Shown piece by piece: positions 1 to 51,047 of a stretch of DNA of 64,000 nucleotides; within the stretch, counting starts at the first letter, position 1; every line of letters begins with the position of its first letter. Where the stretch lies: the NCBI GenBank assembly GCA_951406725.2, contig OX597814.1:64914001-64978000 (forward strand), read 5' to 3'. The stretch is from Octopus vulgaris (Eukaryota). Below the pieces are notes generated by a model that made no database searches, was not told where the DNA came from, and was given only the letters and a program-made list of their open reading frames with translations. Made by a program: the position numbers and the translations under genes.

Positions 1-497
<497 letters not shown>

Positions 498-510
498 GTA
501 ATATTAATAT

Positions 511-1197
511 AGAAAGAACGTGTCAGAAAAATGTAGAGTCTGTGGGACATGGAACGAGACAATGGTACACATTGGGGTAGAATGCCCAATGTTGGCACAG
601 GAAGAATACAAGAAATGGAGGCACAATTAGGTTGTAAAAGTTATACACTGGAAACTGTGCCAGAAATGAGGATTTGAAGCTAGAAACACATGATACAATC
701 ATCGAATCGAAAGAGTACTGGTGTCGAAGAAATGTAATACTTTGTGGACTTCCCTCTTCAAATGGACAAGCAATTAGGACACAATAGACATAACGATTAT
801 AGATAAGGAAAAGTAAAGATGCTTATTTATCGACCCATCACGACCGTTTCATTCCAGGATCGTAAAGAAAGAGGAATAAAAACAAAACAAAAAATATAGT
901 CCCTTAAAATTTGAAATAGGAAGAATTTGGAGCATGTGAACAGTAAAGGTCGTGCCTATAATAATTGGTGCGTTTGGAACAGTAAGCAAACATGTAGACA
1001 AACGGATGAAGGAGATTGAAATAGAATGCCTGGTAGCTCCTATAGAAAGTTTATCTCTTAGAGACAGCAAGGATTATCAAGAGGGTTCTAAGCACTTGAA
1101 AGACTGCTGAAAACTTATGGATACCTAAGGTTACCGGTTGTAAATCGTTATCCACATAGTTCCTACAGGAATAAGACCGAAACTCCGCCAAACCAAA
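511..1197 (+). mobile_element. R4/Dong-type fragment (family C): CCHC knuckle plus RLE endonuclease, degenerate
   Basis: Reads CRVCGTWNETMVHIGVECPMLAQEEYKKWRHN*VVKVIHWKLC...LWDFPLQMD...VVPIIIGAFG with stops. Homologous to 27716-28087. Confidence 0.85.
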
Positions 1198-1208
1198 ATA
1201 ATATTAAA

Positions 1209-1752
1209 TGTTCTGATGCATTACAAGTCACTGGCTCCCATGGCTTTTCATATTAACTGATTGAAAGTTTTATTATGTACATGTGTTGTCTTGGCATAAA
1301 AGATGGGCTACAGCATATATTCTGCTCAATACCACAGATTTGCTTGTCAGTTGTTTGATCTTAACCAGTTGAGCATGTCCCTTAGTGGCTGACGTTATGT
1401 GCATCTCCGATCACGAGCAGAAGTAGTGGGGAAGTATCATAGACAGATGTTGAGAGGAATTCTTTGGGGTTTAAGTAATTCACTTCTGGAAACATGGTTG
1501 TTTCGTTCAATATGCTTAAATAGCTCTTATTCTGGGACCTTTTGAGTGGGATGGTATACCCGACCCGAAGAAAATTCTCCACACTACAAGGTCATGCGCT
1601 GTTTATCTTGATATGAGATCACCATATTGGGCACATATGTGTGATGCATGTGCCTCGTATATTCTTATAAGACGGGTAGTTATGATGAGTATACTGGGCA
1701 AAGTATATTTTATCCCAGTGTCACTTTGATGGTATGCACTGCTCTCTCATTC
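1209..1752 (+). mobile_element. ~540-bp non-coding retroposon with (TAA)n tail (copy 1)
   Basis: Aligns by eye with 9109-9650, 9844-10261, 10283-10812 and 30586-30856. Ends gctctctca(c/t)tc followed by (AAT)n. Confidence 0.85.
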
Positions 1753-1779
1753 AATAACAATAATAATAATGATGATGAC

Positions 1780-2481
<702 letters not shown>

Positions 2482-2845
2482 ATAATAATAATAATAATAA
2501 TAATAATATTTTAGTTGAGCGAAGAACTGAACTTTCATCGTCGAAACTGTTGGAGGATCCATCATTCATATAAAAATGAATAACAAAGAAGCCAAGGAAG
2601 AAAGAAATGTTCAATGTTTGTTTACAATATCTTGTCAGTCACTTTTGTCAAGCATTTTGCAAAGAAAGCTGTAAATTGAACCGAGTTGTTTTGGAATGTA
2701 TTCTATTCGAAAAACGTCAAAACTGAAACGAATGCAGTAAATATCGGTTGGTCTAAATATTAACCAAAAGAATTTTTGGTCGGTATTGAAAGTCCCTCGC
2801 AGGGACTTTACCCGATGCCTTGTCATGTACAATTAATTTGTAGGT

Positions 2846-2990
2846 TGATTTGAGTGGCAGAGCGCGCGACTGAATACCTGCGTCTTTTTTATATCTTTTA
2901 ACGTTCTGAGTTCAAACCCTGGGTTGAATTTTGCATTTGATCTTTCAGAGTGGATAAAGTAGGGACCTGTCAAATACTGAGGATGAGCAC
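2846..2990 (+). mobile_element. Degenerate tRNA-derived SINE (Deu/Nin-like family)
   Basis: acgttctgagttcaaa B-box region and decayed central domain, like the 5620-6262 copies. Confidence 0.55.
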
Positions 2991-3833
2991 AAGCCACTTC
3001 ACCTTCTCCACGTTCACTCTGCGTCAGTAACATATTGAATTCACTACCACCCATAATACAGACATGGTATACGCAACCTAACCACTTATTTAAAGACGTT
3101 CTAGATGACTTCAAAATACACTTTGTTATCTTAAAATGGAGTTATATTGGACAAAAAAAGCCTCCAAAAAATATGGTTGCAACAACTTTTATAAGAGAAC
3201 AGTTTGATCAAAACTGATCTAGGGAAAAGTAATAACAACACAAACAACAGTAGCAGCGATTAACATAGATAAAATTATAGACCAAAATAAAAACAGGACA
3301 CGTTGTGCAGAGCCGATAAAGTACTTAGATGCCTATGTTGCTGTCATGCTCTAACCACCCGTCTTCACGCCGAAGTGTCTGCATATATATATAGCTGCAT
3401 ACTCAATCGCATCTCTGAATATACAAGGATTCGGCAAAGATTAAGCAGTCTAATTTTACTTTATACATAATCTGCATTCCTTAGAACCATTTCCACTATT
3501 TTATTTTGGTAGACTTTTTCTATGGCTACGATTTCCCAGAGCATTTTATCGAGAGCTGGTTTTCACTGCAGCCTACCTCATCTCCGCAGTCTATTACCGT
3601 ATTAACCATGGAGTGATTTCTTCTCCGTTCACTTTAGTATATTTTGGATTTCTGGTTACATATTTCTATTCCAAAACAAAAATAAATCCAGAACTTGGTA
3701 TAATTCTCGTTTTGAAATAAATTCTCAAAGTCCACATACAACTTTAAATAATAGCCTGTGAATATTTACATCCTATTATTTATACCTTCGAGGACAATTG
3801 AAAGTATTATGCTATTTATATTATTCGTAAAAC

Positions 3834-3966
3834 AGTCAAGACGAAGAGCGTGATTAGATTGTAATAGATATTTTATTGGTTGAACGATATTTTAACAGTA
3901 AGTCTGTCATTGTCAAGTTCAAAATACGAAGTGATAAACATTCAAAATTATAGAAATTTAAATAAC

Positions 3967-4051
<85 letters not shown>

Positions 4052-5520
4052 GTCAAGACGAAGAGCGTGATTCGATTGTAATAGATAATTTATTGGTTGA
4101 ACGATATTTCAACAGTAAGTCTTTTTTTGTCAAGTTCAAAATAAGAAGTGATAAAAATTCAAAATTATAGAAATTTAAATGTAAAGTATGAAAGAGGGCA
4201 ACCAGCGTCCACACGTCCACATGTTGATGGAATGACATTATCTGTCTTTAAGTTTCAATTTTATAACAGGCGTAAAGAAAAAGACAGAAAAAAGAAGACA
4301 GGAAAAAAGACAAAAAAAAAACAGAGGAAAGAAAAAGAAAAGGAAAAAGAAGAATTGTTAATCAAACAGTTTTGTATAAATTTGATGATATTCTCCTGTC
4401 ATTTTATTCATTCTTCCAAGGTGTGATGTTTATAACCCGCAAACATATTTCTCATCATTGCATTTTGAGAAGTGAAAGTGAAGCAGATTCAAAATATTTT
4501 CTGAGAATATACACTTTCAAATCTTTTTTCAAAATTGCAGCCGTTTGAAACGAAATGTTCGGCAAGTTCTGTTGAATTACTGTTATTGTACCTGACGTCG
4601 AATCTGTGCCTATTAAATCTTTTGTTTAATTGTTCTGCTATACAACCAGCAAGTTGTGTTTCGTGCATTCTGCCACGTACACCAAATGGGAATCTCTACA
4701 TGTTCCACGTTCTGTATAAACAATAATATTTCTGATTCCCTATGGACTGATGAACTCATGTTGTTGCACAATGGACAGGGCTTACTCCTCTTGCGACTGT
4801 TTTCAAAGTACAGCGTGCAGAAATTCCAACGTTAGTTTTCTTGGAGTCAGAAATAGAGGTCACTAATTCTCTTATATTCTTATTACGTCTAAAGGCTACA
4901 ATAGGCGGCTGAGGAAATATCTGTTTGAAACGAGGTTATTTTGTCGTCGCATGCTGGTAACTTTCATGCAACACTTTTGAAATGCCAGTGAAATTTCGAT
5001 GCCAGTTAATCACTAAAGGAATTCTGTCATCTATTGTAATGTGTTTGCTAAAATTATGCGTAACGGTTTGACTATCTTTGCTAATCTCAGCTATTTCATT
5101 TGCTATTTCCTTTAATCGTCATTCACTGTAATCGCGTTTGACATAATGATGTACAAAAGCATTTGCATGTTTCCAGTAATCTCCTATGTCAGTACAAATC
5201 CGTTTTATCCTAAGAAATTGGGATTTCGGATTTGACCGAATGATATGATGTAGATGATCGGAGCGGTGGTGGAGATAAATATGGGATGACGTGGGCTTGC
5301 AAAATAACTCTGTCACTATTCTGCCTCCAGACTTTTGTGTCCAAAATTTCAACGCTAGTTTTTGAAAAACTAGGCGTAAATTTTATATTGGACTTAAAGC
5401 CTTAGCTTTTCACCTAACAATTACAGAAAAGCAAGGAGTCCATTAAATTATCCTCTGATCCTTCCCAGACACAAAATATGTCATCAATGGACAGTAACCA
5501 GAGTATTGGTTCATGACTAT
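3834..5520 (-). mobile_element. Penelope-like element (Neptune-like), 5'-truncated and degenerate, with duplicated pseudo-LTR segment
   Basis: Minus strand: LWLLSIDDIFCVWEG (RT catalytic motif), TELFCKPTSSHIYLHHRSDH...SQFLRIKRIC (thumb), FPQPPIVAFRRNKNIRELV linker, CRDSHLVYVAECTKH...EQLNKRFNRHR (GIY-YIG). A ~130-bp direct repeat lies at 3834-3963 and 4051-4180. Confidence 0.85.
4098..4138 (-). ncRNA. Degenerate minimal hammerhead ribozyme in PLE pseudo-LTR (second copy at 3881-3921)
   Basis: Two-copy composite UGAAC UUGACAA U GACAG acuua CUGUU GAAA UA UC GUUCA. Stem I is a perfect 5 bp; the core deviates from CUGANGA. Confidence 0.55.
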
Positions 5521-5619
5521 GAAGGGATTTAAATTTCTATAATTTTGAATTTTTATGACCTCTTATTTTGAACTTTACAAAGACAAATATACTACTAATA
5601 CTGCCTACTACGAATAATT

Positions 5620-6262
5620 TCAAATTTTTCCACAAGAGCAGCTATTTTGGAGGAGGGGATGGGTCGATTACATCGACCCCATTGTTCAATTGGTACCGAA
5701 TGTATCGACCCCGAAACGGTGAAAGGCAAAGTCGGCCTCGGTGGAATTTGAACTCAGAACATAGGGGCAGACGAAATATCTATTTCTTTACTACCCACAA
5801 GGGGCTAAACACAGAGGGGACAAACAAGGACAGACAAACGGATTAAGTCGATCACATCGACCCCAGTGCGTAACTGGTACTTATTTAATCGACACCGAAT
5901 GGATGAAAGGCAAAGTCGACCTCGGCGGAATTTGAACTCAGAACGTAGCGGCAGACGAAATACTGGTAAGCATTTCACCCGGCATGCTAGCGGTTCAGCC
6001 AGCTCGCCGTTAAAAGAGACGTACGAAATACCTATTTCTTTACTACCCACAGGGGCTAAACACAGAGGGGACAAACAAGGACAGACAAACGGATTAAGTC
6101 GATTATATCGACCCCAGTGCGTAACTGGTACTTATTTAATCGACCCCGAAAGGATGAAAGGCAAAGTCGACTTCGGCGGAATTTGAACTCAGAACGTAGC
6201 GGCAGACGAAATACAGCTAAGCATTTCGCCCAGCGTGCTAACGATTCTGCCAGCTCGCCACC
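5620..6262 (-). mobile_element. Three tandem tRNA-derived SINE units with a Deu/Nin-like central domain
   Basis: Reverse complement: ggcgagctggcagaatcgttagc (A-box), gagttcaaattcc (B-box), gcctttcatcctttcggggtcgat...aagtacca. Units at about 5620-5778, 5779-6008 and 6020-6262. Confidence 0.85.
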
Positions 6263-6275
6263 TTAATAATAATCA

Positions 6276-9008
<2,733 letters not shown>

Positions 9009-39078: not shown

Positions 39079-39266
39079 AAAATTAAGGGTAAAAATTGAT
39101 ATTAGTGAATTAAAACCAGTGGTCTAGCACATTAAAAAGAATCCGTGCTGAATTTGATCTTATTTTATTTGAGAACAAAATCTTTGTGGAGAATGGCGAT
39201 TTGACGTCTATATCTAGCATGTTGACTGTCCACTTTTTCGTGTTCAGTGGTATATATATATTAATT

Positions 39267-39390
<124 letters not shown>

Positions 39391-39400
39391 CATACATATA

Positions 39401-39489
<89 letters not shown>

Positions 39490-40908
39490 ATATTATTAGA
39501 GACAAAACCACTATTTTGCAAAACAAACAAGGAAAGACTTAATCAATACATAAAATTTTAATAAAAAGTCAAAAAAACCGCCACTACAATTGTTTCTTGT
39601 CCTGATCGACAATCTTCAGGTGGACTTCCAATCTAAAATATCAATATTTTAAAATATAAAATAATAATTTTAAAATAATTAAAGTATTAATGAAAAAATA
39701 TAAATATATAATCTATATATAACCTATATATAATCCATAAATAATCAATATATAAACAATATATAAACTAAAATAAACCTATCAACAATTAAATATAAAA
39801 TATAAAATATAAAACAAAACAAAAAATAAACTATATATATACCCATACACATATAACTAATTATATATAACCATATCTAAAAACATACACTAAATCACAC
39901 ACCTATATATATATCCCTATACATACACATAAAAACGTCTAGGCAACGATAAATAAATAAAATAGCCAAATACTTCAACACAATACTTATTCATACTCCC
40001 TCACACACACATACAACCCACATTCCCGCTCTAGAAACGGACATCATTTAAAATTATGAATGGAGAAATGGAACAAATGGAATTAAAAATTATATTCACT
40101 TGGTAAAACGAACACTACCTAAAAATTATGAATGAAACAATGCAATAAAACAACAGACATCGCAAATAGACACAAATTACTACGAATTCCTTAACAAAAC
40201 TACCATGATAAACTAAAACTCATAAAAACATATAATGATAAAATCTCCCTTTACTAAACTCTATAACATACCTATATAGCAATCCCCCTAACCTAAACAT
40301 TCACACACAAATACACACACGTAAACCACACACCCACGACATATACAAATACCCACCTCACTCACACATACCTATACATACATATAAACCTCAACATATA
40401 CTCCAAAAACCCACACAACCCCACACAGACAAATAAACACATACATCCCCAAACCTATATAGCAAACCCATAAACACATTCACACACAAATATACATACG
40501 TAAAACACACACCATATACATATACATACTCACCAAACTCGACATATACAACAATATTAACACACCCACACTCATACAGATAAACAAACTACACAACCAA
40601 AATACGCACACACTCACACACAATCCCACATACATAAACACTCCAAAGAAAAACAACATTATTACACATAATACGATATATAAAATACATCGTAAGTAAC
40701 CAGAATATCAAAAATAACAATATGACATAAGGAGAAATAATATACATACTTTCAAGTCAGTTTCAAATTATGAAGTGAAATTAAATTCTAAGCCGTTAAA
40801 AACATCAAACCAAAATTACGTTACCATAGGAACATAACTTATGTATAAAAAGAATACGCGCTATGGAAGCAAACGTCATTTAAAATTATGAATGGAGAAA
40901 TAGAATAA

Positions 40909-40910
<2 letters not shown>
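39490..40910 (-). mobile_element. ~1.4-kb non-coding element with a hammerhead near its 3' end
   Basis: Bounded by (TA)n and (TACA)n, with no ORF. Strongly A/C-skewed plus strand. Internal repeats include tcatttaaaattatgaatggagaaat at about 40043 and 40876. Confidence 0.65.
39581..39623 (-). ncRNA. Minimal type-I hammerhead ribozyme, intact
   Basis: Reverse complement CCAC CUGAAGA UUGUC gaucag GACAA GAAA CAAUUG UA GUGG. All three stems pair, the core is intact and the cleavage triplet is GUA. Confidence 0.88.
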
Positions 40911-40955
<45 letters not shown>

Positions 40956-41689
40956 CATATATATAGATATGTATGTATGTATATATATATATATATACAT
41001 ACACATGTATATGAGAATCTGAGTGTGTGTACATATGCATATCTATCTATCTAACGATCTATCAATCTATCTATATTTCTATCTATCTATCTATCTATCT
41101 ATGTATCTATCTATCTATCTCTCGTTATATATATATATATATATATATTGAGATACGTTACTAAGTTCAGGCTGTAAATACACTTCATTATTTGCATCAA
41201 CAAGTTATATTTTCCCCGTGGTTTTGGCAATAAAGTGATAAAGTGGGTGGCGTTTATTTTCCTAAAACCTTAACATTTCCACTTCAATTTTATTCACTAT
41301 AAACTTTATCTTCAATATCTTTCTTTTCTCCTAGATTTCTCCTAGAAAAATTGAGAAAGGGAGAGAGAAAAAGAAACAGATATATAACTTTGTTTTCGGT
41401 GTCATACAAGTTTTGATGTCTCTGGGTTTTTAAACAGTGAAACGAATTGTGCGGCGTACAAAAGTTTTAGGCAATACGTTAGTCTATGGAGGAAGGAAGA
41501 AAGTAACAGCACTTCAAACAGTAGGAGTTAGAATCATATCACAAGTCATTAAACTTATAATAAGCATTAAACTTTCTACTAGTATTTGATGCTGTAGTTA
41601 GTGTTCATTAATTTTTCTGTATAAAAGATACGCTTTTCTAATTTATGCATGTTTCTGTGTGCGTATATAGGTATTTACATGGTCCTAGT

Positions 41690-50676: not shown

Positions 50677-51047
50677 TAAGTAATTAAGGGTTTAGCAACG
50701 AATTGCCTCACCAACACACCGAATTTAGAAATAGCAGTCAAAGAGATATAGCTAATCCTTCTACTAAAAGGGGGATCTCAGTAAAAACACAGCACTTGAA
50801 AGGCAAACACAGACAGGTAAGAAAGAAAGAATGAAATGACGGCAATCTATCATACAATTTTAAGTTATGATAGATTGCCGTCATTTCATTCTTTCTTTCT
50901 TACCTGTCTGTGTTTGCCTTTCAAATGCTGTGTTTTTACTGAGATCCCCCTTTTAGTAGAAGGAATAGCTATATCTCTTTGACTGCTATTTCTAAATTCG
51001 GTGTGTTGGTGAGGCAATTCGTTGCTAAACCCTTAATTACTTAGTAT
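50674..51047. repeat. Fold-back palindrome, ~180-bp arms with an ~11-nt loop
   Basis: 50674-50853 is the reverse complement of 50865-51047 with few mismatches. A ~105-bp unpaired extension runs to (TA)n at 51155. Confidence 0.92.

Follow-up and report, generated by a model that had tools for sequence, protein, structure and literature searches.

The window, a stretch of 64,000 nucleotides of Octopus vulgaris DNA, contains on its minus strand a non-coding piece of about 1.4 kb (39485..40910), which is inserted in a (TA)n target run (39251..39484); a TA-rich run also flanks its 5′ end (40911-41012). We consider it probable that this piece is the 5′-truncated, intron-retaining 3′ end (pseudo-LTR) of a young Hydra-clade Penelope-like element (PLE), and that the short genomic copies lacking a GT-AG segment are reverse transcripts of the spliced 5′ leader of this retrotransposon. 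The piece begins at about 40909, with no inverted arm, and its first part (40777..40910, minus strand) is element sequence from the promoter side, upstream of the putative transcription start. This is followed, on the same strand, by a putative 27-nt exon 1 (40750..40776), which starts at the A of an initiator-like TCACTT, at or just inside which the spliced copies stop. Next comes a predicted GT-AG intron of 1,117 nt (39633..40749), with the donor GTATGT, U/G-rich repeats and a last 70 nt free of another AG; its removal in genomic copies is exact, joining unit position 5485 to 6611. The first 9 nt of exon 2 (39624..39632) lie between the acceptor and stem I of a minimal type I hammerhead motif (39581..39623), and the rest of exon 2 (39485..39580) leads to a tail-less 3′ end, which is ambiguous within TA. 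This is one of two fixed ends; the other, 77 nt further on, is absent here.

The first-pass annotation had taken the 1.4 kb as a non-coding element, either a retrozyme-like passenger of a PLE or an unusually long pseudo-LTR. The piece is instead part of a larger unit, corresponding to positions 5325-6763 of a 6,840-nt unit with 97% identity, and to 7190-8614 of the complete copy L036 with 97.5% identity; the link to a PLE and the long pseudo-LTR are retained, and the passenger is not. The description of the piece was accurate: it has no ORF of at least 80 aa except frames running through the TA repeat, its ribozyme strand is U/G-rich (plus-strand GC skew −0.53 and AT skew +0.35 over 40001-41000), and internal direct repeats are present. 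Overlooked were the intron, which takes up 1,117 of 1,417 nt and ends 9 nt before the ribozyme, and the large class of short spliced copies.

The hammerhead motif

The 43-nt hammerhead had been transcribed exactly, letter for letter (39623-39581 of the minus strand), and the end of its GUA triplet, at 39585, and its distance of about 90 nt from the (TA)n run were also correct. The motif has the CUGANGA and GAAA segments, the NUH triplet, stems I and II, and a palindromic stem III, and the predicted cut follows the A at 39585. A minimal-hammerhead descriptor matched once in the window, versus once in 100 dinucleotide-matched 64 kb simulations (0.01 per simulated window); in the 2.8-Gb genome, a 16-mer taken from the motif is matched exactly 1,934 times and its reversed control not at all. 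The motif is therefore not a chance occurrence. Rfam gave no hammerhead match on it, and among the 150 of 282 matches listed for the whole window, we found solely microsatellite-driven miRNA matches.

The hammerhead is not the minimum-energy fold of the sequence (z −0.18; −6.0 versus −10.2 kcal/mol), and folding lends no support to a stable monomer. Stem III has 2 bp in the monomer, while its self-complementary octamer is fully paired in a dimer (−6.4 kcal/mol), and we thus assign the motif to the dimer type, a minimal form described for animal PLEs in the available text of PMC4209133. The duplex is preserved in the common G variant of the octamer (−5.8) and is weaker in one subfamily (−2.9). 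One base pair of stem II is U-A in the window copy, A-U in one subfamily and U/U in others. Across 133 ribozyme arms, collected by a pattern that itself fixes the hammerhead core, variation falls mainly in loop II and the centre of stem III.

Self-cleavage is a prediction, and would need dimerization or help from a protein; in either of these ways the hammerhead may still cut. The genomic copies carry no footprint of the cut site: the 5 nt preceding it are intact in 1,023 of 1,055, and the 32 that differ there amount to about the mutation level. The idea that copies begin at the ribozyme cut was accordingly ruled out. Such a hammerhead is nothing unusual for the Hydra clade; what makes the element noteworthy is its intron, together with the spliced copies.

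In two older relatives with 74-85% protein identity (L103 and L104), no hammerhead core was found across the 9.9-kb loci, where the tail region is present, and in L102 the 5′ repeat has a deletion spanning the ribozyme; loss of the ribozyme in some lineages and decay are both possible. At a further locus, L105, an unrelated minimal hammerhead with different stems and a 2-nt stem III, belonging to another repeat family, lies between TA runs about 240 nt upstream of an ORF match.

The parent element

Used as a query against the genome, the 3′ 207 nt yielded 1,207 candidates, including 41 matches at 99-100%, and 10-kb stretches around 36 of them were examined. Each of the 36 loci is a colinear piece of a single unit that bears an ORF; their 5′ ends are spread over unit positions 331 to 6515, and four of the loci reach the RT/GIY-YIG ORF. 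The annotation had reasoned that the piece would be just a truncated PLE if longer copies always continued into such an ORF, and this largely proved to be so. As the window copy is colinear with L036, has no match of its own to the Penelope-like ORF in the window, and belongs to a set in which four of 36 copies reach that ORF, we regard it as a truncated 3′ end.

In the complete element L036, a hammerhead-bearing 5′ repeat of 1.8 kb precedes the 840-aa ORF, after which come 4.26 kb of non-coding sequence; this closes with the same repeat and is followed by (TA)n. More generally, the unit comprises the 840-aa ORF (RT, then GIY-YIG) and 3.8-4.3 kb of non-coding 3′ sequence, the end of which is repeated before the ORF. 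This repeat holds the donor, the GT-AG segment of 1.1-1.85 kb, the acceptor 9 nt before the hammerhead, and the two fixed 3′ ends, which are 77 nt apart and lie about 60 and 137 nt before the ATG. Two young subfamilies (6.3-6.8 kb) and two older copies (5.6-6.2 kb) gave unit lengths of 6,840, 6,344, 6,180 and 5,559 nt. At the protein level, 92 matches were found in the genome, of which the 12 best reach 98-100%, and in eight of 18 copies examined the ORF is open for 838-852 codons; the family is young, with intact ORFs.

Some of the 5′ ends form a cluster at unit 3950-4315. The long 3′ region of L036 contains, at 4878-5870, a C/A-rich inverted relative of the U/G-rich repeats, with which the RNA could form a long hairpin, and the truncation cluster is located just downstream. 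In the subfamily of the window, an internal duplication has doubled the start-site/donor cassette (L036, where the donors are at 6115 and 7350; L098), and two introns of 1.1 and 2.4 kb are possible in it.

Membership in the Hydra clade

Judged by its motifs and sequence similarity, the family is a Hydra-clade PLE. The 840-aa ORF, aligned to 10 homologues, has YRDD and VYKC...YIG motifs and is colinear with the Hydra-like homologues through the RT and the endonuclease (EN); 39 of 40 matches, to homologues of about 700 aa, show 32-43% identity. Pfam returned nothing significant in this ORF. As described in the available sections of Craig et al. 2021 (PMC8557442), the clade has DKT, an N-terminal RWK instead of GxKF/Y, a CxCX5C linker, CxxC and CxH beside conserved E and N, and GIY-YIG at the C terminus, with no CCHH motif in the endonuclease and no insertion-in-fingers domain. 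The octopus ORF has the DKG-to-DKT feature as SDKT, in an invariant column block, and at the RWK position RIKWKAF, which aligns to the R-x-RWK-AF of the homologues with a conservative R-to-K change. In addition, it carries the cysteine motifs CTCRDKSNC (CxCX5C linker), CYLC (CxxC) and CRH (CxH), so that these motifs, the DKT, the RWK-position motif, YRDD and the C-terminal GIY-YIG are common to both.

Outside the ORF, insertion into (TA)n and a canonical hammerhead near the 3′ end are Hydra-clade features, and both are present; the palindromic stem III and the same motif layout are likewise found in the available part of PMC8557442 and its File S2. The architecture is that of EN+ PLEs, with partial tandems (pseudo-LTRs), an inverted 5′-truncated copy, and an optional tail at one end. 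One homologue, P0008 (35% identity, E 2e-105), closely resembles, by eye, Hydra-2_Amil of the available supplement of PMC8557442, while Hydra-1_Obim (2,507 bp, with a different ribozyme) is by eye not the octopus family.

The family differs from the clade, as represented in the available text of PMC8557442, mainly in size. The typical but non-defining length of less than 3 kb (1.1-3.0 kb for the 27 listed Hydra families) is exceeded by all four units measured, and 3.8-4.3 kb of the octopus unit of 5.6-6.8 kb is non-coding 3′ sequence. The ORF has 840 aa, with an Asn-rich insert of about 125 aa, in contrast to about 700 aa in the clade, and the tail has 77 nt, in contrast to 30-40. The octopus family has a probable intron, whereas none is given for the clade in the available text. 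The closest homologue, P0001 (43%), has an Asn-rich insert too, at a different place, before the CxCX5C linker. By eye, a U-rich tract and an AG lie at stem I, or shortly ahead of it, in several Hydra ribozymes of the available part of File S2; this may represent the same acceptor.

A probable intron and the genomic copies that lack it

The list of ribozyme matches contains many opposite-strand pairs less than 100 nt apart. Fold-back at a hairpin just upstream of the ribozyme was considered as the cause of these short pairs, and was dropped when their junctions proved to be spliced. In a sample of the first 40 loci of contig C1 (window copy excluded), 23 loci join the ribozyme exon directly to the sequence that lies 1.1-1.85 kb upstream in the long copies, 14 keep the intervening segment, and three are unclear. 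Counted by arm, the same sample has 61 arms, of which 34 are spliced, 20 are unspliced, two are joined to other sequence, and five are broken inside the first 9 nt of exon 2. The missing segment starts with GTAAGT or GTATGT and ends with AG, 9 nt (8 in one variant) before stem I. These features, namely GT-AG ends, a consensus donor, an AG-free U-rich 3′ tract and exact removal in cDNA-like genomic copies, are those of a U2-type intron. In 10 ORF-bearing copies, its length is 1,116-1,853 nt, and all 10 keep the 3′ intron.

Genome-wide, we counted 679 spliced junction arms, from two subfamilies only, versus 601 intron-keeping arms; these are arms rather than insertions, found by exact-match patterns that cover the subfamilies unequally and miss mutated copies. 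The junctions follow the donor of each subfamily: GACTT/GTAAGT with a tandem donor 4 nt on, GATAT/GTAAGT, the window type GAAA/GTATGT, and GATTAGAAG/GTATGT. Both junctions are found where two donors lie 4 nt apart; loss of the first donor by a point change, as in the window, shifts use to the second. The window-type loop II is carried by each of the 12 window-type junction arms, which come from eight loci, seven of them picked for that junction. Exon-2 haplotypes are common to spliced and unspliced arms, and the short copies therefore arose repeatedly. The spliced copies, about 170-270 nt long, are likely to be reverse transcripts of a spliced 5′ leader, the splicing being read from DNA copies. 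Subfamily C was considered as a donor-less control and rejected, as it has a donor.

We also compared the spliced locus L147 with contigs of four sequencing runs from four studies. Exon 2 and the tail were found in four of four, the ribozyme in three, and the junction with exon 1 in one, and no contig continues into the element body; the RNA status of these runs was guessed, and genomic spliced copies confound the comparison, in which mRNA is not separable from transcribed genomic copies or DNA. Two loci, L115 (G000:C1:18107070-18114570) and L107, carry at the acceptor, in place of exon 1 of the element, a different sequence fused to the ribozyme exon; L115 may represent a trapped host exon or a chance truncation.

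Ends and pairing of the copies

Spliced copies stop 23-32 nt upstream of the donor, at the initiator-like motif, and 22 of the 23 spliced loci of the C1 sample end within 32 nt of the donor. Several end exactly at the A of TCACTT, and the copy ends thus point to this A (40776 in the window) as the transcription start. An initiator-like TCACT has been noted in rotifer pseudo-LTRs (PMC3846280, available text). A cap-derived G at the 5′ ends was considered and rejected, since the G comes from the opposite arm. In two spliced copies, L132 and L149, the sequence reaches upstream beyond the putative start, by 137 nt in the former and about 300 nt in the latter. Read-through RNA can therefore also be spliced and copied, and the division between the two templates is not absolute. 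The window copy starts 134 nt upstream of this point and keeps the intron, which places it in the unspliced read-through class; its promoter-side sequence suggests that it came from read-through RNA.

At the other side, copies end at either of the two fixed 3′ positions. The spliced copy L147 does not stop at the tail: another 22 nt, from the element body, follow before (TA)n, and the copy ends short of the ORF, which indicates that its template was a pseudo-LTR transcript leading into the ORF. Among 16 pseudo-LTRs that continue into the body, L147 is the only spliced one and 15 are unspliced (p about 1e-4), 13 of these 15 being at ORF matches of the protein search.

In simple two-arm head-to-head insertions, one arm is tailed and the other is tail-less in 35 of 35 cases, a count that leaves out the compound or edge-cut loci L036, L088, L089, L090, L118 and L126 and the duplicate L148. 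Two pairs that had been scored as tail-less on both arms turned out to have a mutated tail on one arm. The splice state is the same on both arms in all 16 classifiable pairs, and among the junction arms listed, both pairs that use the rare second donor do so on both arms. In 23 pairs, the median difference between the two arms of a pair is 1 nt, versus 6 nt between loci. A single template serving the two arms, whether through fold-back or through two priming events, would fit these data; two RNAs of the same locus are also possible.

Alternative explanations

Could the 1.4-kb piece be a non-autonomous, retrozyme-like element that borrows the RT of a Penelope-like element? Such an origin would agree with the conserved ribozyme motif, with the 32 of 36 copies that stop short of the ORF, and with the reported derivation of animal retrozymes from pseudo-LTRs (bioRxiv 10.64898/2026.07.22.740005, available text). 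However, none of the scattered 5′ ends coincides with that of the window copy, all of the pieces are colinear with the ORF-bearing unit, the window has no tandem array of ribozyme monomers, and the copies bear no sign of cutting at the ribozyme. The retrozyme reading is already largely refuted, and we hold it to be exceedingly improbable. A loss of the segment by DNA deletion or template jumping, with coincidental GT-AG ends, would account for the short copies without splicing; full copies could still be made from an antisense template, the proposal put forward for rotifer elements. Other internal deletions do occur in the family (L040, L049, L102 and L142), and the RNA side of our data consists of assembled contigs only. 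Yet segments of 1,116 nt up to 1,853 nt in length end exactly at GT and AG, either of two donors 4 nt apart can be chosen, and most junction types are without microhomology. Moreover, the sense GT-AG sites cannot be used in an antisense template, and spliced and unspliced copies share the head-to-head, one-tail architecture, which points to sense RNA as the template. Deletion or template jumping is thus very unlikely.

The short spliced copies may also be imagined as a SINE-like family, born once or a few times from spliced RNA and since then multiplying by itself, in which case their number would say little about the parent mRNA. They are numerous and young, they keep the initiator-like motif, the ribozyme and the priming sites, and copies lying within host transcripts could be recopied. 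Against this, at least five junction alleles are matched to long subfamilies, with which exon-2 haplotypes are shared; the 5′ ends and the inversion junctions vary between loci, with a shared flank in none of 40 loci; and L147 runs into the element body. We consider such a self-multiplying family unlikely, and favour repeated reverse transcription of the spliced leader.

A proposed two-template model

How, then, could a retrotransposon keep its intron while its spliced RNA is copied? We propose the following scheme, drawn from the DNA copies.

Transcription and splicing: Transcription would start at the initiator-like motif, 23-32 nt before the donor, and the intron would be spliced out, yielding the mRNA for the ORF.

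Priming: The RT/endonuclease would nick (TA)n and prime internally on uncut sense RNA, at a pair of fixed sites shortly upstream of the ORF. For another clade, Poseidon, it has been shown in vitro that uncut RNA is primed internally at two sites (PMC11167929).

Copying: On the spliced mRNA, the enzyme would reach the 5′ end after about 170-270 nt. The products would be dead-end copies of the leader, in many cases arranged head-to-head and with a single template for the two arms. Priming in the same way on unspliced read-through RNA would copy the intron and sometimes the ORF, giving rise to copies such as that in the window and to full elements.

We lean slightly towards the full form of this model, in which both templates are recorded in this genome and the puzzle of intron retention would be settled for the family. 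The element would prime internally on sense RNA; spliced mRNA would be copied at least as often as unspliced RNA, giving only the 170-270 nt leader; the ORF would be carried only by unspliced read-through RNA; and both arms of an insertion would come from one template, with each priming site used once. In the same form of the model, solo hammerheads scattered through animal genomes may in many cases be spliced-leader copies of this kind, and host exons could be captured by the acceptor next to the ribozyme. Selection could be an alternative or an added cause of the lack of spliced full-length copies: the Drosophila Penelope needs its intron for protein output (PMC2377424, available text).

Comparison with known systems

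A PLE pseudo-LTR that contains a hammerhead, a 5′ UTR intron with its end at helix I, the tails and the inverted pairs have all been published before. In Penelope of Drosophila virilis, according to the available text of PMC2377424 and PMC4209133, transcription starts in the pseudo-LTR, a 5′ UTR intron follows 46 nt downstream, and the intron's 3′ end lies at helix I of the hammerhead. With its putative start site, the octopus family resembles Penelope and Chlamys-3_cRei (PMC8557442) in that the start in the pseudo-LTR is closely followed by the intron, which has 75 nt in the former and 398/751 nt in the latter, in contrast to 1.1-1.85 kb in the octopus. In the available accounts of these two elements, intron retention in copies is described and a large spliced genomic class is not mentioned, whereas the octopus family has such a class.

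The Poseidon element PAc of Anolis carolinensis (Frangieh et al. 2024, PMC11167929) has two adjacent internal priming sites that define the tail, as proposed for the octopus family, and its targets are likewise AT-rich; its mechanism, in which both strands are cut and extended with uncut RNA as the main template, may be likened to that proposed here. PAc belongs to another clade, its priming sites lie inside the ORF and not before the ATG, and its description does not treat splicing. The Penelope families of Adineta vaga (Arkhipova et al. 2013, PMC3846280, available text) share with the octopus family Asn-rich ORF inserts, head-to-head inverted repeats with palindromic junctions, the optional tail and TCACT. 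There, an antisense template was favoured for intron retention and unspliced sense RNA was left open, whereas the spliced head-to-head copies of the octopus point to sense RNA. Metazoan non-LTR retrozymes, as characterized in the available text of bioRxiv 10.64898/2026.07.22.740005, are non-coding, have a type I hammerhead and are related to pseudo-LTRs, as are the octopus copies. By definition they are tandem repeats whose consecutive units contain a ribozyme, whereas the short octopus copies are single or head-to-head: no tandem complete-hammerhead units were found in the window, and the 40 sampled loci are single, head-to-head or compound insertions.

The available text of PMC13282606 and PMC12910113 holds nothing on introns or ribozymes, and in the literature covered, which was incomplete and mostly excluded subscription papers, we found no report of abundant spliced genomic PLE copies or of a Hydra element of this size. 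PLEs are the sister group of telomerase and keep introns although they move through RNA, and the available text of PMC8557442 called the significance of this retention unknown in 2021. Hundreds of young copies with exact intron removal, in the same insertion architecture, argue for sense RNA, and a link between intron retention and the place where priming starts would help to explain introns in working copies. The copies also map the putative start site, the donors, the acceptor and both proposed priming sites from DNA alone. As the family is young, with intact ORFs, and more than twice as long as the described Hydra elements, these predictions are directly testable.

Other repeats in and near the window

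A second family of the same type was found about 53 kb before the window (G000:C1:64859834-64861321) and at L105 and L106. It has 50% identity over the first 480 aa, and two of its copies have open frames of 955-962 codons. Within the window, 50781-50940 is a near-perfect palindrome of about 160 nt, MITE-like or a fold-back, with Rfam matches below threshold, and 5771-6259 holds 1.9 tandem copies of a 251-nt unit, probably a common short repeat.
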